Shown here piece after piece: positions 486 through 4,893 of a stretch of DNA of 4,893 nt. The stretch lies in IMG/VR virus record IMGVR_UViG_2541047122_000019. The stretch is one strand, 5' to 3'. This DNA is from a virus (Duplodnaviria > Heunggongvirae > Uroviricota > Caudoviricetes). The stretch's first letter is position 1; each line of letters opens with the position of its first letter. The translations under genes were made by a program, and so were the position numbers. The notes under the pieces are model-generated. The model did not search any database and was not told where the DNA came from. It was given only the letters and a program-made list of their open reading frames with translations.

Positions 486-2021
486 TCACTTCGCAATTCC
501 TGGCTGGACGACATTCGGACGCCAGCTCTCCCAGTTAAAATTCACCCATCGCCCGCCGTTCATGGTCATGCGATCCATAATCCGCTCGCCGAGCAATGTT
601 TTCATGGCCTCATAGTTCAGGTTTGTCAGCATCCCCACGCTGCGCATCGACGCTGTCCGGCGATCAACAATCTGGTGCAGCACCACCTGCTCGTTTTTCG
701 TCTCGCGCTGAATGCCAATTTCATCAAGAACCAGCAGATCTACTTCGCACAGCTCCCGCAAAAATTTTTCGCCTGACTGCCCGTCGTCATAGCTGGCGTG
801 CAGGGCGCTCATAACATCAGCCACGGTAACCACAATCACTGTCTGACCGTCTTTCAGCAGGCGATTCCCGATAGCTGCCGCTAAGTGATTCTTCCCGGTA
901 CCAGGTTTTCCGCTGAACGCAAAATTTGTACACCCGGTCATCAGTTCATCGGCGATGGATTTCGCCTGGCTTAACGCGTATCGCTGGCCGTCGTTCTGCA
1001 CCTGGTAATTCGCAAACGAGCATTTACGGTGCAACGGCTGGATGCCTGAACGATTCAGAATTTTTTCCACCCGCAACTGGCGATTCAGGCGGTTGATCTC
1101 CTCGCTACGTTTCTGGCCTTCAGCAAGTTGCCACTCGCGCCACTCCGCTACCGTTCTGAATGGGGCGGTTACATGTGGCGGGGTCAGTCGGCGGATGCGT
1201 TCCAGAACGCCGCCTGTCGCAATATTTTTCATGGTCCGTTCCCCCCTGAAGCCTGGCGGGATCGCACTGTCCGGCAACGAGACAGTGTTAACCTGTCGGA
1301 GCAACGTCTCAGGCCGAACACCTTTCGGCGCGAACAGGCCCTGGTATTCATTGGCGATGCTGTGTCGAATCACCTGCTCAGGTGTAAAACCCTGCTGACG
1401 GAATTTTTCCAGCTCCCGTATCGCCCCGTTAGCGCCCTGCTCCGTTCGAATCGGTTTTCGCAATGCCTGCCTGAACTTAACCCACTCATGCCAGAGTGTT
1501 TCCGGCAACCAGTCAGGCAGCTCGATAGCCTCCGGCTCGAATTTTTTAGACGCTCGTTTTTGGCGAGGGGGATTTAGGGGGAGATCAGTATTTATATCTT
1601 CCTCTTCCTCTGGTAACGCTTTTTGATCCGTTTGTGTAACGCTGCCAGCGTTACCTTTTCGTTTCAGTTCGCGTATTTTTGTAACTCGCTCGTTTGTAAC
1701 CGCCCGTTTTTTAGAGCTTTTTCCGTTATGACGTTCAAAGTTAGGTAGAGAAAGCCCACCGTCATTTTCGACCAGCCATCCAACCTGAATTAACGCATCA
1801 GCAAAACCAGCCATAAAAGTGATGCGGTCTATTGCACTTTTTGTAACGCCGCGAGCGTTACAATCTGCATTACCGTCTATCATTTGTTGATCCGCCCATG
1901 CCCAGAAGCGAATAACCTTCCCTAATGCGGCATCTGGATCAATATTCAGAATCTCAGCAAGCCTGAATATTTCCGGCTTATCCGGCGTAATAACCTCGAG
2001 CTTTATCCAGTTTGAAGCCAT
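486..2021 (-). CDS. Phage replication protein: N-terminal initiator domain and DnaT-like segment fused in frame to a full-length DnaC-like AAA+ helicase loader (YdaU/YdaV-like modules in one ORF)
   Basis: 511-codon ORF, ATG at 2021..2019 with SD AAGGTGA 6 nt upstream, stop TGA at 488..486. C-terminal 248 aa carries Walker [16 protein letters not shown], Walker [11 protein letters not shown], and [19 protein letters not shown] and [10 protein letters not shown], matching E. coli DnaC as recalled from memory. Residues about 175-260 end in [16 protein letters not shown], resembling the DnaT C-terminus. An internal ATG (1232..1230) with G-rich SD would give a stand-alone 248-aa DnaC-like product. 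Confidence 0.85.
1585..1712. repeat. Iteron-like repeat cluster with adjacent AT-rich stretch inside the replication gene; candidate phage origin of replication
   Basis: GTAAC-containing repeats at 1613-1620 (gtaacgct), 1636-1654 (19-bp perfect palindrome gtaacgctgccagcgttac), 1681-1688 and 1696-1703 (tttgtaac direct repeats). AT-rich run cagtatttatatcttcctcttcctc at 1586-1610. The region encodes the low-complexity acidic linker (..[11 protein letters not shown]..) between the N-terminal and DnaT/DnaC-like modules, as ori-lambda lies in the linker-coding part of gene O. Confidence 0.45.
1841..1863. repeat. Palindromic site TTGTAACGC-N5-GCGTTACAA, same family as 1636-1654 and 2034-2054
   Basis: ttgtaacgccgcgagcgttacaa read directly; 9-bp arms are reverse complements. 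Lies inside the N-terminal domain coding region of the replication gene. Confidence 0.4.
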
Positions 2022-2098: not shown

Positions 2099-2521
2099 TC
2101 AATGCACTACGACAGAATCGCCGGGCGACCCACCACCGCTGAAATGTGCTTTCCGGTAAACGGCCTGGACTGCATCATCATGCGCATCAATTGCCGTACT
2201 CAACGCTTCCTGCGCCGCCAGTAATGCACGGCGTTCCAGGGTATCGAAGATGCAGAGTCGGTGACGCAGCTCGCGCGGAAGAATTGCCAGAACCGCAGGG
2301 ATCAGTTTCTGAATTTTTTCCCTTTGCGCTTTCGTTTCACCTTTCAACCAACGGTGATAGATATTCTGCTGATTGTTCCAGTCCTTGCCTGGTACAAGGG
2401 GCAATTCGCCGCCCCCCTGGCGCAGATATTCTTCAGTAATTGCGTTAGCGACCCACGCCTGCCCTTTTTCGGCTGCCAGGGCTAACAACACTGATTCGAT
2501 GTGCTCATGCCTGATTTTCAT
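2099..2521 (-). CDS. ydaT: YdaT-like protein (Rac/CP-933P prophage; described as a functional CII equivalent)
   Basis: 140-aa ORF MKIRHEHIESVLLALAAEKGQAWVANAITEEYLRQGGGELPLVPGKDW... matches YdaT of E. coli Rac-type prophages in length and sequence as recalled from memory. ATG at 2521..2519 with SD AGGAG 10 nt upstream. Start overlaps the stop of the upstream Cro-like gene (ATGA), and the position after cro is as expected for a cII analog. Confidence 0.75.
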   Translation of the reverse strand: MKIRHEHIESVLLALAAEKGQAWVANAITEEYLRQGGGELPLVPGKDWNNQQNIYHRWLKGETKAQREKIQKLIPAVLAILPRELRHRLCIFDTLERRALLAAQEALSTAIDAHDDAVQAVYRKAHFSGGGSPGDSVVVH

Positions 2522-2760
2522 GAATCAACCGCTCCTATGCTGTTTTCGCTATGCTTACCGTCTGGGGGGAATACATCGTCAAGTCCACAATGAGCGCCAA
2601 GCCGATTAAGGGTAGAAACAATTTTTCTGCACTCCTCTAGTCCAGGGGTACGAAAATTTGCTTCGTAATTTGCCAGTCGGCTTTGTATCCACCCTAACTG
2701 AACAGCAAGTTGTCTTTGAGACAGCCCAAGCTGTTTTCGATATGTTGAAATTTTGTTCAT
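2518..2760 (-). CDS. XRE-family HTH transcriptional regulator, Cro-like first gene of the leftward early operon
   Basis: 80-aa ORF; ATG at 2760..2758 with SD GGAGG (complement of plus 2767-2771) 6 nt upstream. HTH signature LGLSQRQLAVQLGWIQSRLANYEAN. Divergent from the repressor gene. Candidate promoter on the minus strand: -35 TTGACC (plus 2804-2809), 17-nt spacer, -10 TTTAAA (plus 2781-2786). Confidence 0.85.
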   Translation of the reverse strand: MNKISTYRKQLGLSQRQLAVQLGWIQSRLANYEANFRTPGLEECRKIVSTLNRLGAHCGLDDVFPPDGKHSENSIGAVDS

Positions 2761-2856: not shown

Positions 2857-3276
2857 ATGGAAAAAGAAAACGAAAAAATTGCCGCTAGTAGGCTCAATGA
2901 CAAAATTGCAATGCGTCTTAAAGAGCGCAGGCAGAAGCTTGGTTTATCTCAAGGAAAACTTGCTGAAATCTGCGGATGGACGCAATCGCGTATAGGTAAC
3001 TATGAGGCGGGCAGCAGAAATGTTGGAGTGCATGACGCTGTCGTATTGGGAAAGGCACTTGGCATATCTCCTCCTGAGCTCCTATTTGGAGAACAGGAAT
3101 CTTCTGAATTGTGGTTAAATGAATCCCAACGAAAACTTCTTGAGTTGTTTAACCAGCTACCTGGCTCAGAACAACAACGAATGATTGAGCTATTTGAAGT
3201 CCGGCTAAAAGAAATCGATGAGTATGTAGAAAAATATTTGAGAGGCAGGCTTAAAGATAATCCCCCACCGGAGTAA
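2857..3276 (+). CDS. Prophage repressor, XRE-family HTH N-terminal domain with helical C-terminal domain (DicA/RacR-like)
   Basis: 139-aa ORF, ATG 2857 with SD AAGGA, stop TAA 3274-3276. HTH LGLSQGKLAEICGWTQSRIGNYEAG. C-terminal LLELFNQLPGSEQQRMIELFEVRLKEI resembles the DicA C-terminal region as recalled from memory. Divergent from cro and followed by an intrinsic terminator. Confidence 0.85.
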   Translation: MEKENEKIAASRLNDKIAMRLKERRQKLGLSQGKLAEICGWTQSRIGNYEAGSRNVGVHDAVVLGKALGISPPELLFGEQESSELWLNESQRKLLELFNQLPGSEQQRMIELFEVRLKEIDEYVEKYLRGRLKDNPPPE

Positions 3277-3306
3277 TGATCTTGCTATCACAGTAATATG
3301 CCAATC

Positions 3307-3331
3307 AGCCCGCTATCAGCGGGCTTTTTTG
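3307..3331 (+). terminator. Rho-independent terminator downstream of the repressor gene
   Basis: Stem agcccgct (3307-3314), loop atc, stem agcgggct (3318-3325), followed by a T run to 3330 (gggcttttttg). 8-bp GC-rich perfect stem, 30 nt after the stop codon. Confidence 0.75.
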
Positions 3332-3359
3332 TACCATCATCATATGACACCCACCACAA

Positions 3360-3401
3360 AACACATTTCGTGTTGACATAAGAAAACGCATTGTGTTTAA
3401 T
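3360..3401 (+). promoter_or_regulatory. Near-consensus sigma70 promoter (TTGACA-17 nt-TTTAAT) overlapped by an operator-like palindrome; candidate repressor-controlled rightward early promoter
   Basis: -35 TTGACA at 3373-3378, 17-nt spacer, -10 TTTAAT at 3396-3401. Palindrome AACACatttcGTGTT at 3360-3374 overlaps the -35; a degenerate copy AAAACgcattGTGTT at 3383-3397 overlaps the spacer/-10. Same half-site family as 2785-2799. Confidence 0.55.
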
Positions 3402-3581
3402 AAGCATATCCAAACAACGCCCCACCAGAGAACGGCTGGACAATACCTCGAGTTATCCAGCCACTGAACAGGGCTAAGTAGCCAGCCTGAGGCATACGAA
3501 CATGACGGCAGTTGTTGATTGATACAAAGCGCAGTAGATAAAACGTTCCGCCACCCGGCGTTAAGGGGAAATGAGGTCAAC

Positions 3582-3734
3582 ATGGATACTATCGATCTTG
3601 GCAACAACGAATCTCTGGTATGTGGCGTGTTTCCCAACCAGGACGGCACATTCACCGCGATGACGTATACCAAAAGCAAAACGTTTAAAACCGAAGCTGG
3701 CGCGCGTCGCTGGTTAGCAAGAAACTCTGACTAA
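3582..3734 (+). CDS. Small prophage protein of the YdfA/YdaF type (about 50 aa; family name recalled from memory)
   Basis: ATG 3582 with SD GAGGT (3573-3577), stop TAA 3732-3734. Product MDTIDLGNNESLVCGVFPNQDGTFTAMTYTKSKTFKTEAGARRWLARNSD. Position downstream of the repressor matches the ydfA (Qin) / ydaF (Rac) arrangement. The track ORF starting at TTG 3519 has no SD. Confidence 0.65.
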   Translation: MDTIDLGNNESLVCGVFPNQDGTFTAMTYTKSKTFKTEAGARRWLARNSD

Positions 3735-3822
3735 TGAAATCTGGTAATTAAGGAATCCTCCACGGGGGGAGAGTGGTGCACACGCGCCGGACACAAGCAA
3801 GCATCCGGCATGCTCTTTAACA

Positions 3823-4400
3823 ATCTGGATATCCATAACAGTAAAAATCTACAGATTGCCGTTCAGTTTTCTGGCCAACTCTTCAATAGATGGAGGTGAT
3901 ACGTAATCCGGATTTTTATTCATAAGAAACTGATTTTCACAGTACAGGCACCTGCTTTTATGAAAAAATTCATATTCTCTAACCGGGAATGGCTGAAGTA
4001 TCGATACTATCTTTTGTCCAAAACATTTTGGACAAAGATGCATGATTATGCTGCCGCCGTTCACGGTTACCTCCTTCGAGTACACAAAAGTTCCCGACTC
4101 AAGTTGGCTAAGGATATAACCTTCCGTCTGAGCCTCAAAGTTTTCAAATTCTGCAATTTTAGCTTTGAGAGAAGCATTTATTTCTTGATAAGTGCCCACC
4201 AGCTCAACGAGAGACACGCATTCGCGCTGAATAGATGCAAGCTTTGAGTTCAGTTCACCAATAGCCGCATTTACTTCAGCTTGAGTTTTTGCCTCGTTCA
4301 TTAGTTTTGCAATCTGGGCGGTTTCACGAATAGCCGTCATTGCTGCCGTTAATTCAGCGATCACATTCAATACTCTTATTGTTGTTGGGGATATCCAGAT
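3823..4400. mobile_element. Putative small insertion cassette: 578 bp, AT-rich, 12-bp perfect terminal inverted repeats, flanked by a 5-bp direct duplication TAACA, carrying one ORF
   Basis: Left end ATCTGGATATCC (3823-3834) is the exact reverse complement of the right end GGATATCCAGAT (4389-4400). The match extends inward to 17/19 (left 3822-3840 vs complement of 4383-4401). TAACA directly abuts both ends (3818-3822 and 4401-4405). Hand-counted GC is about 35% at 3961-4020 against about 60% at 1201-1260. Confidence 0.4.
3849..4340 (-). CDS. Hypothetical protein, about 163 aa: N-terminal coiled-coil-like helical region and C-terminal CxxC-x22-CxxC zinc-ribbon-like motif; cargo of the AT-rich cassette
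   Basis: Minus-strand ORF with stop TAG at 3851..3849. Best start is ATG 4340..4338 (MTAIRETAQIAKLMNEAK...); alternatives are GTG 4364 or the track start 4517, whose first 59 codons lie in GC-rich sequence outside the cassette and look like a spurious extension. C-terminus has HLCPKCFGQK...(22 aa)...CLYCENQ. No recognisable SD; AT-rich codon usage. Family not recognised. Confidence 0.6.
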   Translation of the reverse strand: MTAIRETAQIAKLMNEAKTQAEVNAAIGELNSKLASIQRECVSLVELVGTYQEINASLKAKIAEFENFEAQTEGYILSQLESGTFVYSKEVTVNGGSIIMHLCPKCFGQKIVSILQPFPVREYEFFHKSRCLYCENQFLMNKNPDYVSPPSIEELARKLNGNL

Positions 4401-4541
4401 TAACAAGATCCTTGTTGTTGGGGAATAACGGGGACCACCTCGCCTGACGTGGTAAAAAGCAGGCACACAACACGAAAGCACACGGCGAGGGACACCATTA
4501 AATGGTGGCTTAAGCAATCACGCGAAGCGCAATCTGCCATT

Positions 4542-4886
4542 ATGACCGATGAAATCCCGTTAGATGATGCACTGTTACAATTGCGGGAATTTATCGACGA
4601 AAACTCCGGTGAATTTTTTGTTCAGGTCTGGGGAAATGGAGCCAACTTCGACAACACGATTTTGCGCCGTTCATACGAACGGCAGGGGATCCCCTGCCCG
4701 TGGCGTTACACCAATGATCGCGATGTAAGAACGATGGTTGCTCTGGGACTGGTGATGGATTTCGACGCAAGAACGACTATTCCATTCGAAGGTGAACGCC
4801 ATAACGCCCTGCACGATGCGCGTTACCAGGCAAAATACGTTTCAGCCATCTGGCAAAAACTGCTCCCGAGTCAGGCTGATTTTTAA
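4542..4886 (+). CDS. DEDDh (DnaQ/Orn-like) 3'-5' exonuclease-like protein, apparently lacking the N-terminal Exo I motif (truncated gene or remnant)
   Basis: ORF open from 4404; track start GTG 4449, first ATG 4542; stop TAA 4884-4886. Exo II-like motif VWGNGANFDNTIL and Exo III-like motif HNALHDARYQ (H-x-A-x-x-D-A) are present. No D-x-E Exo I motif in any in-frame upstream sequence. Weak SD at both candidate starts. Confidence 0.55.
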   Translation: MTDEIPLDDALLQLREFIDENSGEFFVQVWGNGANFDNTILRRSYERQGIPCPWRYTNDRDVRTMVALGLVMDFDARTTIPFEGERHNALHDARYQAKYVSAIWQKLLPSQADF

Positions 4887-4893
4887 TGTTCAA

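Follow-up and report, generated by a model that had tools for sequence, protein, structure and literature searches.

Rac-, Qin- and e14-type lambdoid prophages have a conserved slot for accessory genes in their early-left (pL) operon, and the cassette described here is one of its alleles. The slot is an antisense exclusion slot enclosed in a bracket made of a boxA and a long-range inverted repeat; in these lineages, the stretch from pL to the module showed no N gene. No description of such a bracket around an antisense defence slot was found in the literature. A first-pass annotation had read the inverted repeats as the ends of a transposed element; the cassette is almost certainly not a transposon.

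Organization of the Early-Left Region

The DNA analysed, hereafter the window, is a single stretch of 4,893 nucleotides, in which the following features are relevant to the slot:

3373..3401, plus strand: putative pL (TTGACA, 17 nt, TTTAAT) with an operator-like repeat, proposed from the sequence
3582..3734, plus strand: DUF1391 (YdfA/YdaF-type) gene, first of the early-left operon (Pfam PF07151, E 3.5e-30)
3787..3808, plus strand: hairpin CCGGA-N12-TCCGG in a boxB-like position, ending 2 nt before boxA
3811..3823, plus strand: rrn-type boxA and spacer start, TGCTCTTTAACAA, containing the left TAACA
3812..4472, no strand assigned: inter-backbone mobile block, 93.6% identical to PhiR29_1 and e14-type prophages
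3822..3847, plus strand: left arm, with a 13-bp perfect core (3822-3834) and a weaker inner extension
3849..4364, minus strand: Rip1-family (ring interacting pore 1) cargo gene, 171 aa, antisense to pL
4376..4401, plus strand: right arm, inner extension followed by the 13-bp perfect core (4389-4401)
4379-4391 and 4412-4424, plus strand: direct copies of TTGTTGTTGGGGA, the first overlapping the right arm
4434..4466, plus strand: distal hairpin ACCAC...GTGGT followed by AAAAAGCAGGCAC, conserved
4489..4886, plus strand: 3' remnant of a 3'-5' exonuclease gene, with a deletion junction at about 4489/4490

The intrinsic terminator of the repressor gene (3307-3325) lies just upstream of the putative pL, and the operator-like motif TTGTGTT(T/A)(T/A)AT is repeated at 2793, 2816 and 3391; a consensus promoter scan did not flag this promoter. 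The DUF1391 gene occupies the same position in Qin- and Rac-type prophages. The hairpin preceding boxA is kept in Rac/Qin-type contexts, and a different one, GCGCCC-N4-GGACGC, stands at the same place before boxA in e14-type contexts; the order in rrn leaders is boxB followed by boxA (PMC6614801). Both copies of TTGTTGTTGGGGA are kept in all module variants, and HK446 and HK620 carry an analogous pair, CTGTAGGGGTA twice. The distal hairpin, which could be overlapped by a second stem between GCCTG (4442-4446) and CAGGC (4460-4464), is kept in the module variants, in HK446 and HK620, and in the arm-less slots of K-12 e14, BL21 and CFSAN064035, which hold other genes. Qin-type homology stops at 4489, where exonuclease homology starts; Pfam and PHROG profiles match the exonuclease remnant by their C-terminal parts only, and RefSeq treats it as a pseudogene devoid of its N-terminus. 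Rfam returned no match within the module. A sub-threshold Rfam match to Trp_leader at 3246-3332 overlaps the repressor terminator and was taken as chance.

A Ribosomal-Type boxA at the Left Boundary

The sequence GCTCTTTAACA at 3812-3822 fits the boxA consensus GYTCTTTAANA (PMC5725501) / UGCUCUUUA. The module boxA has a 14-nt identity to the rrnG boxA-spacer sequence ugcucuuuaacaau (rrnG sequence from PMC2724277), and boxA plus 9 nt are identical at 19 of 20 positions to the boxA region of the K-12 rrnH 16S-23S spacer. The natural variation of the module between AACAA and AAAAA parallels the difference between rrn leader and spacer boxA. This boxA lies on the same strand as the putative pL, the DUF1391 gene and the exonuclease gene, and the early-left genes of related loci share its strand likewise.

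Two Inverted Arms and a Fortuitous Direct Repeat

Direct reading of the sequence confirmed the perfect 12-bp inverted repeat reported by the first-pass annotation (ATCTGGATATCC at 3823-3834 against GGATATCCAGAT at 4389-4400), together with the copies of TAACA that abut the left (3818-3822) and right (4401-4405) arms. Adding the abutting A/T extends the perfect core to 13 bp (3822-3834 / 4389-4401), and a repeat search lengthened the arms to 26 nt (3822-3847 / 4376-4401) with 81% complementarity, or 24 of 26 pairs by hand count if G.U is allowed. The arms contain a perfect 8-bp palindrome, GGATATCC, found within the window at these two places only; their remaining five bases, AATCT/AGATT, are non-palindromic and are as conserved and inverted as the palindrome itself. 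Shuffled versions of the window contained a perfect 12-bp inverted pair at a spacing of 100-3000 bp in 37% of cases, and such a pair with a flanking 5-bp direct repeat in 0.15%. Chance is certainly excluded as the origin of the arms, because they reappear in 149 related loci. The 5-bp duplication is a fortuitous feature of the window's lineage, since the pentamer 3' of the right arm is rarely TAACA among 70 distinct variants (TAACC in 32, TATAC in 10, TAAAC in 8, TACCC in 5, TAACA in just 2, and others). The supposed target-site duplication therefore consists of a nearly invariant left copy that belongs to boxA and a right copy seen in very few variants. As had been noticed at first reading, the interior is AT-richer than its surroundings; the values then given, 35 vs. 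60% GC, were overstated, with 40.7% measured inside the cassette and 49.8 and 49.5% in its flanks, a dip of 9 points.

A transposon origin, as a non-autonomous element or a small element of a new type that ends in the 12-bp inverted repeats and duplicated 5 bp of its target, would account for the rarity in shuffles of a perfect inverted repeat with TAACA on both sides, for the AT-richer interior and for the identical termini found around different cargoes, and MITE-like transposons indeed resemble the cassette, being small segments, richer in AT, that end in short inverted repeats. We nevertheless regard this origin as very improbable. The left TAACA is explained by boxA and the right one varies; the sequences outside the arms travel with the gene; and, unlike MITE-like transposons, the module has no true target-site duplication, no precise empty site, no dispersal and a fixed orientation. 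The block common to different prophage backbones runs from 3812 to 4472 (boxA, arms, cargo and right flank), the sequence on both sides of it differing between the window and PhiR29_1 or e14-type prophages, and this mobile unit exceeds the arms, as first delimited, by 11 bp on the left and 72 bp on the right, on which ground a MITE-like transposon was rejected. The allele predicted for an empty site is absent: the sole cassette-less allele, that of K-12 Qin, is missing a larger block that runs from boxA to CAGGCACAC and comprises boxA itself, the cassette and some 72 nt beyond the right arm; it carries about 46 nt of unrelated filler where a single TAACA was predicted. The search for further copies of the termini, also proposed earlier, found them to be abundant and to enclose interchangeable cargo, but all in one prophage slot. 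Retrieval by the right arm only (58 loci) gave no arm acting as a solo terminus or lying at an unrelated genomic position: boxA was found no more than 1.5 kb upstream in 47 loci, most of which then had a recognizable left arm, and the remainder comprised 6 contig-truncated loci, 1 whose left boundary was swapped for unrelated late-region genes, and 4 related environmental phage contigs without the rest of the module. No transposase was found. The presence of a single gene between inverted repeats also recalls an invertible switch, in which a site-specific recombinase would flip the intervening segment; this is scarcely conceivable, as no inverted locus was encountered, the cargo is antisense in 147 of 149 loci with disrupted genes in the other two, and no recombinase gene was seen beside the slot in the loci inspected. 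An inverted repeat combined with a direct repeat is insufficient evidence for transposition. The description of a discrete single-gene accessory cassette adjoining the immunity region is itself supported.

The Cargo Gene Encodes a Rip1 Homologue

The most likely start of the cargo gene is GTG at 4364 (516 nt), as in the RefSeq annotation, rather than the ATG at 4340 initially proposed, and the N-terminus that it adds, MIAEL(T/S)AA, is conserved in most of the diverged homologues. The cysteine motif, initially counted as CxxC-x22-CxxC, is CxxC-x24-CxxC. The product matches PHROG 1244 (E 2.7e-56) and has no match in Pfam, PADLOC 2.0 or NCBIfam; of the profile and structure searches recommended by the first-pass annotation, only those against structures and PDB sequences identified Rip1. 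The AlphaFold model (pLDDT 91.9) consists of helices at 3-23 and 28-79 followed by a beta domain with four invariant Cys. Foldseek aligned it with chain 9oox_M, HK446 Rip1 in complex with the T6 small terminase (E 4.5e-7, probability 1.0, TM 0.71 on the target); the profile of the cargo family matched 9oox_L, “ring interacting pore 1” (E 6.4e-24, profile 6-152 / chain 16-160); BLASTP against HK446 gp37 gave 27% identity (E 5e-13), and both CxxC pairs align between the two proteins. We are therefore highly confident that the cargo is a Rip1 homologue. The gene, “uncharacterized” at first reading, can no longer be called so as of 2026, and the guess that it serves exclusion or defence was right. 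A function is hence assigned to a “hypothetical protein” of a Rip1 subfamily that PADLOC 2.0 and NCBIfam miss.

Rip1, described in 2026 (Patel et al., as summarised in PMC13434031), is a prophage defence protein that binds the small-terminase or portal ring of the infecting phage and forms a pore; in Pseudomonas phages, its gene lies between the terminase genes (PMC13434031). The HK446 protein (PDB 9oox; 164 aa vs. 171 aa) and the cargo are both prophage-encoded and homologous over nearly their full length, with long N-terminal helices and a C-terminal beta domain; at 27% identity, the activity, trigger and pore known for Rip1 are attributed to the cargo by homology. The C-terminal zinc-ribbon domain of the cargo would accordingly bind the oligomeric ring made by the small terminase or portal of an infecting phage, and its N-terminal helices, confidently predicted and of modest hydrophobic moment (maximum 0.41), would form a membrane pore and abort the infection. 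The cargo sits in the boxA/inverted-repeat bracket, whereas its HK446, HK620 and Pseudomonas homologues do not. HK446 and HK620, in which N is present, carry their Rip1 homologues antisense in the same operon with neither boxA nor arms, which fits the bracket being an N-independent solution.

Distribution and Conservation of the Bracket

boxA and both arms were found together in 149 loci of Enterobacterales, where they enclose three unrelated cargo families: Rip1-like (82 loci), PHROG 6315 membrane-type (57) and ECs1072 (8). The longest open reading frame is antisense to pL in 147 of them, the other two holding disrupted cargo genes. The bracket extends to other genera, in which the cargo protein is merely 45-61% identical. 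Among 5426 complete E. coli genomes, the right arm and its flank occur in at least 1460 (at least 27%) and the window-type module (3760-4480) in 681, O157:H7 included. Across 59 cargo clusters, conservation reaches 97% in boxA, 93% in the left arm and 99% in the right arm, against 36-40% in the interior, the figures for the bracket being inflated by the retrieval of loci through boxA or the right arm; the right arm is nearly invariant in loci retrieved with boxA+TCTGG alone. The repressors of the prophages that carry the module are unrelated to one another (RacR, DicA and LexA-like cI types), and the same backbone type holds different cargoes. Since K-12 e14 and BL21 have antisense slots with neither arms nor boxA, and no N gene was seen there either, the bracket is not indispensable. 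The only locus in which both arms have diverged, from Trabulsiella (L132), has 6 + 4 bp of pairing left and no boxA, an observation that we regard as anecdotal.

The bracket can serve as an easily searched sequence tag that leads to defence candidates; its two other cargo families, ECs1072 and the membrane proteins of PHROG 6315, are uncharacterized. An assignment of the membrane-type cargo to SieB was rejected, as it gave no Pfam match and only weak matches to 2TM effectors (E ~0.01).

Resemblance to rRNA Processing Stems

The similarity to rRNA operons covers boxA and the outer end of each arm, which match the base of the stem at which E. coli 23S rRNA is processed. In rrnH, AAAUCUGGAUCAAGCUGAAAAU comes immediately after the spacer boxA and pairs with AUUUUCAGCCUGAUACAGAUU downstream of 23S in a duplex of 19 Watson-Crick pairs within a 21-bp register, the whole flanks pairing at -54.8 kcal/mol against -31.3 +/- 4.2 kcal/mol for shuffles; AT.CAGATTAA is common to the right arm and the 23S trailer. 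The 16S leader has the same layout of boxA then stem, and boxC has been described as part of the RNase III duplex, with a delivery model proposed (PMC6614801). Module and rrn leader/spacer thus have in common a hairpin, a consensus boxA, and then one strand of a duplex that encloses a distant segment. They differ in that the module encloses the antisense of a protein gene, over 0.45-0.9 kb, instead of rRNA, and in that its stem is predicted only and shorter, with 13 perfect bp or up to about 26 with mismatches. A comparable arrangement exists in the early regions of K1E/SP6-type phages, in which boxA is followed at once by a different long-range stem of 20-22 bp (z = -7.4) that encloses a small gene, two related phages having different genes in the same bracket. 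The complementary sequences that follow boxA in rrn 23S and in K1E-type phages are different ones, which favours maintained pairing as far as architecture goes. Of nine further phage contexts that contain this boxA 18-mer, seven lack a distal partner.

Do the Arms Pair as RNA?

The predicted stem dominates the folding ensemble: the core helix has a probability of 0.97 in 26 of 26 full-length variants folded with their flanks. This prediction is equal on both strands (0.971 vs. 0.975 for the minus strand). No covariation was detected, with none of the 13 core pairs changed on both sides and 197 of 500 shuffles reaching the observed value; the arms being conserved as sequence without covariation, conservation does not by itself demonstrate pairing. 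Single-base changes in the left arm yield G.U, A.C and other mismatches with no bias, and an assignment to the plus strand from wobble pairs in four variants was dropped when a larger, less biased sample revealed no bias in the core. In the inner arms, G.U gives the plus strand an excess of paired positions (62.7% vs. 52.7%), but a composition rich in G and T and the location of the cargo stop codon within the left inner arm confound this asymmetry. Own inner arms paired at -9.07 kcal/mol and swapped ones at -8.08 kcal/mol (35 of 60), a difference that is not significant. A Rho-loading site would be expected to show a marked excess of C over G, which the interior lacks (C > G in 39 of 59 clusters). 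Given that the covariation tests are uninformative, the RNA strand and the function of the arms are inferred.

We give an even chance to the following model: pL transcription crosses the antisense cassette by virtue of boxA, and the two arms come together in a long-range stem of RNase III type. The bracket would belong to the pL-sense transcript, in which boxA would recruit NusB/NusE and other Nus factors and RNA polymerase could cross 450-900 nt of untranslated antisense RNA with no Rho-dependent termination. The left arm, abutting boxA, would pair with the right arm once the latter is transcribed; the resulting stem, of 13 bp or up to about 26 bp, would close off the antisense cassette as a loop, much as boxA-proximal sequences do for 16S and 23S rRNA. 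The stem is probably a substrate for RNase III. CRISPR arrays offer a precedent, in that boxA protects their long untranslated transcripts against Rho (Stringer et al., 2020, PMC7665894). There too, a consensus boxA heads a long untranslated stretch to which Rho would otherwise have access, whereas the stretch in the module is the antisense of a gene within a coding operon and its boxA is coupled to an inverted repeat. The promotion of termination by boxA in some contexts (PMC12360218) counts against an anti-Rho reading. The benefit would be dual, namely expression of the downstream early genes and production of a defined antisense RNA that may silence the defence gene during the lytic switch of its own prophage; the conserved bracket could moreover supply homology for swapping cargo genes.

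Other readings of the arms are less favoured by these data. The arms might be passive boundary sequences, the left one an extension of the boxA-spacer sequence and the right one part of the promoter or 5' leader of the cargo, both serving as exchange “linkers” of functionless complementarity. Such a reading, which we find rather unlikely, agrees with the conservation of the arms as sequence with compensatory changes absent, with the occurrence of AATCTGGAT 3' of boxA in the rrn spacer as well, with the location of the right arm 25 nt upstream of the cargo start beside a conserved nnTAAT, with the edges of the inter-backbone block at or beside the bracket, and with the presence of different cargoes in one backbone type. 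It would nevertheless require two independently constrained sequences to be exact reverse complements over 13 nt, which is very unlikely; in rrn, what follows boxA is itself one side of a long-range stem, the other side of which resembles the right arm, and K1E-type phages repeat the layout with unrelated yet complementary sequences. Pairing could instead take place in the minus-strand mRNA of the cargo, between a 5' leader containing the right arm and a 3' UTR containing the left arm, and stabilize or regulate that mRNA in the lysogen. The minus strand is predicted to form the helix just as well, the ribosome-binding site comes after the right arm, and e14-type loci have a strong minus-strand intrinsic terminator (hairpin + T6) just past the left arm, so that the 3' end of the cargo mRNA would include this arm. 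No sigma-70 consensus match was found for a cargo promoter, several hand-found candidates being weak; hence the cargo mRNA could also span both arms. Pairing in this mRNA remains unlikely in our judgement: no promoter was found upstream of the right arm, transcription from the sole -10-like element, which abuts the arm, would begin within the arm, boxA and the resemblance to rrn are meaningful on the plus strand only, and the K1E-type analogues are on the boxA-sense strand. It is more improbable still that the arms are DNA sites at which a dimeric host or phage protein binds GGATATCC and loops or silences the gene. The perfect palindrome limited to the two arms of the window and the conservation of the sequence itself, beyond complementarity, speak for such sites; no candidate protein is known, however, the module occurs in prophages with unrelated repressors, the five non-palindromic bases are equally conserved and inverted, and the rrn and K1E parallels would be left unexplained.

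If transcription through a boxA-anchored, stem-closed cassette is correct, prophage defence cassettes would join rRNA, CRISPR arrays and suhB within the range of Nus-factor/boxA biology, and the model suggests how a prophage could avoid death by its own abortive-infection gene. A broader and more tentative proposal, which we consider possible but less likely than not, is that phages using host RNA polymerase have borrowed the design of rRNA maturation as a general “RNA cassette holder,” in which a boxA-anchored Nus complex would hand the strand next to boxA to its distal partner, the two forming an RNase III stem. Rac, Qin and e14 prophages would hold interchangeable antisense defence genes in it (Rip1 and two further families), an excisable full-length antisense RNA shutting off the abortive-infection gene on induction, and K1E/SP6-type lytic phages would hold early genes in sense orientation, likewise interchangeable. 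Besides acting in regulation, the bracket would in that case be a mark by which new defence genes can be searched for.

Relation to Exclusion Genes and Morons

The gene sieB is antisense in the early-left operon, and its antisense RNA sas is derived from the pL transcript; to our knowledge, no boxA/inverted-repeat bracket has been described around sieB. In the P22 sieB/esc/sas system, sas switches translation of the exclusion gene and the phage thereby escapes its own defence (PMC12197685). The module resembles this system in its exclusion or defence gene and, as we infer for the module, in control by a cis-antisense RNA. The cargo is unrelated to SieB and has only its genomic position in common with it; neither the cargo of the window nor the other cargo families match the Pfam SieB profile. 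The Rip1 homologue of HK620, in the same slot, is annotated as a putative superinfection exclusion protein. Like lambdoid morons, the cassette carries a single accessory gene of lower GC content, apparently its own transcription unit, that is swapped between unrelated backbones. Morons have arbitrary junctions, whereas the slot has a conserved structured bracket common to three cargo families.

Gene Order and Prophage Context

The window holds the immunity and early region of a Rac-type lambdoid prophage, laid out as follows.

Features of the window
486-2021, minus strand: replication protein with an IstB/DnaC-like ATPase
2099-2521, minus strand: YdaT-family gene
2518-2760, minus strand: Cro-like HTH gene
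2857-3276, plus strand: repressor-like HTH gene, with its own terminator at 3307-3325
3373-3401: putative pL
3582-3734, plus strand: DUF1391 gene
Between the DUF1391 gene and the exonuclease remnant: cassette
4489-4886, plus strand: 3′ remnant of a 3′-5′ exonuclease gene

From this layout it follows that early-left transcription runs on the plus strand and that the cassette gene (3849-4364, minus strand) lies antisense to it. Many E. coli O157:H7 chromosomes match 3760-4480 at 100% identity; in one of them the match sits inside a prophage adjoining potC, and the annotation there makes the exonuclease a pseudogene without its N-terminus. RefSeq treats the exonuclease remnant as a pseudogene. 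Qin-type homology stops at CACGGCGAG (4489) and runs directly into the last ~130 exonuclease codons (window 4481-4893), a junction implying that dicF, dicB, and the remaining early-left genes were deleted in this O157:H7 prophage. Upstream of the DUF1391 gene, the segment 3500-3571 is not covered by the alignment with the O157:H7 record that is otherwise nearest, an alignment starting at 3545. Other records match the segment at 98.6-100%, among them, oddly, one named Actinobacillus phage vB_Apl-pPE4 (70 nt at 100%), and this pattern points to a mosaic junction near 3545. Within and just upstream of the replication gene, a palindromic TGTAACGC-N6-GCGTTACA occurs three times (1635-1658, 1842-1865, and 2034-2057; spacing 207 and 192 bp), and the copies look like putative iterons or an origin. 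A sub-threshold Rfam Trp_leader match (3246-3332; 27.5 bits vs. a gathering score of 41) overlaps the repressor gene end and the intrinsic terminator and was taken as a chance match to the terminator hairpin.

The Cassette Gene and Its Product

Read directly, the window gives TAACA (3818-3822), ATCTGGATATCC (3823-3834), GGATATCCAGAT (4389-4400), and TAACA (4401-4405) in that order. The perfect 12-bp terminal inverted repeats with TAACA outside each, reported in the first-pass annotation, are therefore present, and reach 13 bp once the abutting A/T is counted; a repeat search of the window lengthens the arms to 26 nt (3822-3847 and 4376-4401) with 81% complementarity. The segment had also been called AT-rich, and the interior is indeed AT-richer than its flanks, but modestly so (40.7% GC vs. 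49.8% and 49.5%). A single minus-strand ORF fills it, as described, although the likely start is GTG 4364 (171 aa) instead of 4340 (163 aa), given the RefSeq annotation and the N-terminus MIAEL(T/S)AA kept in the majority of diverged homologues, and the cysteine spacing reads CxxC-x24-CxxC instead of CxxC-x22-CxxC.

Searches of Pfam, PADLOC, and NCBIfam returned no match for the protein. It belongs with PHROG 1244, a family without assigned function, and none of its 109 sequence homologues is informatively named (“hypothetical” or “uncharacterized” where named, all of these in Enterobacterales). Profile and structure searches nevertheless point to an identity. A model from a 41-sequence alignment (pLDDT 91.9) predicts helices at 3-23 and 28-79 followed by a beta-rich domain with four invariant cysteines, much as the coiled-coil-like N-terminal half and two-CxxC C-terminal part first proposed. 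The only significant Foldseek match in the PDB is 9oox, phage HK446 Rip1 bound to T6 small terminase (E 4.5e-7, probability 1.0, TM 0.71 on the target); the family profile aligns with the 9oox chain “ring interacting pore 1” over nearly its whole length, both CxxC pairs included (E 6.4e-24); and HK446 gp37 is 27% identical to the protein by BLASTP (E 5e-13). Judged from profile and predicted fold, the cassette gene product is a Rip1 homologue, a new and divergent member of a family characterised in 2026.

A 2026 review of Patel et al. describes Rip1 as a single-protein, prophage-encoded defence: twelve monomers encircle the 11-mer small terminase, a pore is built from the N-terminal amphipathic helices, and premature lysis of the infected cell follows; escape mutations fall in the small terminase in coliphages and in the portal in Pseudomonas phages (PMC13434031). 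The earlier guess of an accessory exclusion or defence gene thus gains homology to a defence family, the activity itself being presumed. Rip1 homologues are carried by Pseudomonas phages DMS3, JBD30, and D3112, and among coliphages by HK620 (hkaP), HK629/630, and HK446. In HK446 and HK620 the Rip1 gene is likewise antisense within the pL operon, between N and cIII, with the same distal hairpin, but neither boxA nor arms stand beside it.

A Conserved Bracket Around Interchangeable Antisense Genes

Viral contigs were scanned with boxA+TCTGG and, separately, with the right arm, and species-representative genomes were searched via the cargo protein family. Together, these scans yielded 149 loci with the complete module, i.e., an rrn-type boxA (3811-3823 in the window), both arms, and the conserved right flank, bracketing loops of 453-920 nt. 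The longest ORF is antisense in 147 of the 149, the other two holding disrupted cargo genes, and only three protein families occur: that of the window (82), PHROG 6315 (57), and the “ECs1072 family phage-associated protein” (8). PHROG 6315 proteins are membrane-type, of roughly 150 aa with hydrophobic central segments; because of their slot position, they and the ECs1072 family are candidate defence genes. PHROG 6315 proteins also give weak matches to PADLOC 2TM effector models (E about 0.01), and the third family matches NCBIfam NF033230; loci noted for these two families include L005 (3552-3998), L169, and L105.

The module lies in two kinds of upstream context, Rac/Qin-type and e14-type, and in both a hairpin stops 2-3 nt short of boxA. 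In e14-type phages, pL probably lies upstream of this hairpin, judging from K-12 e14 pL and the leader it has in common with PhiR29_1, and the minus strand of the hairpin, with T6 after it, looks like a putative intrinsic terminator of the cargo gene. The architecture extends to Citrobacter, Scandinavium, Kosakonia, Trabulsiella, Symbiopectobacterium, Edwardsiella, Enterobacter, Buttiauxella, and Erwinia, whose cargo proteins are only 45-61% identical. Agreement with the column consensus, partly inflated by the mode of retrieval, is 97% in boxA, 93% in the left arm, and 99% in the right arm, against 36-40% in the interior; loci chosen by boxA only still have a nearly invariant right arm, and those chosen by the right arm only a nearly invariant left arm. 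At least 1460 of 5426 complete E. coli genomes contain the right arm and flank, and 2669 contain part of the flank; a single genome may have as many as five copies. K-12 e14 (ymfI), BL21, and CFSAN064035 carry antisense genes in the slot without boxA or arms, and all retain the distal hairpin ACCACC...GTGGT-AAAAG-CAGGCAC.

Rejection of a Transposed or Invertible Element

Inverted repeats flanked by TAACA had suggested a transposed cassette. A perfect 12-bp inverted pair arises in 37% of window shuffles, and one that also has a flanking 5-bp repeat in 0.15%. The comparative evidence goes against transposition, as the flanks outside the arms move with the gene, no precise empty site exists, TAACA is not a duplication, and orientation is constant. 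PhiR29_1 and many e14/CPS-53-type prophages carry the cargo gene at 93.6% DNA identity just downstream of an unrelated repressor, and the block they have in common with the window runs from GCTCTTTAACA (3812) to ...CAGGCACACAACA (4472), so that the gene takes along both TAAC(A) copies, and the 72 nt beyond the right arm, from one backbone to another. The presumed target-site duplication dissolves on inspection: the left TAACA falls within TGCTCTTTAACAA, which has 14-nt identity to the rrnG boxA-spacer (PMC2724277) and agrees with the gammaproteobacterial boxA consensus GYTCTTTAANA (PMC5725501), and of 70 distinct variants only 2 have TAACA as the pentamer adjoining the right arm, TAACC being commonest. 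K-12 Qin has the same flanking genes and lacks the whole 3812-4472 block, with ~46 nt of unrelated sequence instead, which is not the precise empty site anticipated. This filler (L008 3667-3712, 46 nt) sits where other Qin-type prophages have the module, can fold into a separate hairpin (CTGAC...GTCAG), and includes GGATATTTCC, which recalls the arm core; an old deletion may have left it behind as a remnant.

Further copies of the termini, sought as the first-pass annotation proposed, gave no independently transposed ends. Among 58 loci retrieved by the right arm only, 47 have boxA upstream, and in most of these a left arm can be recognised after it; six loci are cut short by the contig end, one has late-region genes replacing the left boundary, and four are related environmental phage contigs, read as chance matches since the rest of the module is absent there. 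An invertible switch would likewise use inverted arms, but a flipped cargo was never found in the 149 module loci.

Likeness to rRNA Processing Stems

In K-12 rrnH, on which the rrn comparison was done, the 16S leader reads CTGCTCTTTAACAATTTATCAGACAATCTGTGTGGGCAC and GTGCTCACACAGATTGTCTGAT comes after 16S, i.e., boxA and then, 4 nt on, the 5′ strand of the long-range 16S stem. In the 16S-23S spacer boxA is TGCTCTTTAAAAATCTGGATCAAGCTGAAAAT, and the stretch after it pairs with ATTTTCAGCCTGATACAGATT of the 23S-5S spacer (19 Watson-Crick pairs in a 21-bp register; whole-flank duplex -54.8 kcal/mol vs. -31.3 ± 4.2 for shuffles). The left side of the module, TGCTCTTTAACAATCTGGAT, is identical to the rrnH spacer at 19 of 20 positions (20 of 20 in variants L130 and L139), and AT.CAGATTAA is common to the right arm and the 23S trailer; on these grounds the bracket looks like the base of the 23S precursor stem. 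boxC is described as part of an RNase III duplex, and the antitermination complex has been proposed to keep leader sequences at the RNA exit tunnel until their 3′ partners emerge (PMC6614801); boxA also shields long untranslated CRISPR transcripts from Rho (PMC7665894).

Nine other phage contexts with the same boxA 18-mer were examined for a distal partner; seven had none. In the other two, both early regions of K1E/SP6-type Autographiviridae, AATCTGG leads straight into one strand of a different stem, 20-22 bp long, the other strand of which is found 290-350 nt downstream (z = -7.4 each); the stem encloses a single small gene on the sense strand. In L107, where the bracket has its boxA at about 5229, a second boxA immediately follows the 3′ strand of the stem, and the related phages L060 and L099 have different genes within the same bracket. 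These appear to be independent instances of a boxA-plus-stem design. The bracketed small genes lie upstream of ocr.

Predicted Pairing of the Arms and a Proposed Role in the pL Transcript

Besides pairing in the pL transcript, the arms could be passive linker sequences, DNA-binding sites, or pairing elements of the cargo mRNA. Over all 26 pairs, 79.8% of cells are paired in the arm register, vs. 32-48% with the partner slid, and 97% in the 13-bp core. No core pair changed on both sides and covariation did not exceed the shuffle control; what is conserved in the arms is the sequence itself, an observation that speaks neither for nor against pairing. Nor is the cargo strand set apart: the core helix has an ensemble probability of 0.97 on either strand in 26 of 26 full-length variants with flanks, and left-arm substitutions in an unbiased sample reveal no strand preference. 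Exchanging inner arms between variants made no significant difference to their pairing. At the inner 13 positions, 62.7% of cells are paired on the plus strand as against 52.7% on the minus, a comparison confounded by the G/T-rich right inner arm and by the cargo stop codon, which often falls in the left one. Assignment to the plus strand therefore rests on boxA, rrn similarity, and the K1E-type analogues, not on covariation.

We give roughly even chances to a reading in which the bracket belongs to the pL transcript: Nus factors recruited by boxA would carry polymerase across the untranslated antisense cassette, the arms would close it into a stem-bounded loop, probably cut by RNase III, and the conserved bracket would serve as homology for cargo swapping. 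A plausible but speculative purpose is that prophage induction could thereby be coupled to antisense silencing of an abortive-infection gene, one with triggers (terminase and portal rings) that the prophage too will make; such silencing would be comparable to sas and sieB of P22 (PMC12197685). Antisense exclusion genes in the slot, boxA antitermination, and rRNA processing stems are each already known. In a literature search with most subscription journals outside its reach, no description was found of a consensus boxA and 23S-stem-like inverted repeat around interchangeable antisense defence genes, nor anything relevant on the arm sequence or on boxA with Qin, Rac, e14, or dicB; Rfam has no entry within the module.

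Antisense ORF and Right-Flank Elements

Opposite the Rip1-family gene, a plus-strand ORF of 95 aa (3960-4247; 84-103 aa in seven other variants) has no clear ribosome-binding site and remains open in diverged family members. The longest antisense stretch free of stops, 115 codons vs. 75.6 ± 17.3 under synonymous codon shuffling, was reached by 70 of 2000 shuffles, a marginal result.

On the right, TTGTTGTTGGGGA occurs twice in direct orientation (4379-4391 and 4412-4424, 33 nt start to start) in every module variant. In the arm-less HK446 and HK620 a comparable pair, CTGTAGGGGTA twice, takes the corresponding position upstream of the Rip1 homologue; a regulator may bind such a pair, or it may belong to the cargo leader or promoter. 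The distal hairpin, ACCAC...GTGGT followed by AAAAAGCAGGCAC (4434-4466), is kept in all slot types, including arm-less slots and N-bearing phages. Pairing of GCCTG (4442-4446) with CAGGC (4460-4464) is also possible, and this second stem would overlap the first and make a pseudoknot. In L140, a C-G pair of the first stem has become G.U, and on the minus strand of arm-less variants the distal hairpin overlaps a possible promoter (TTcACC, 16 nt, TATcCT).
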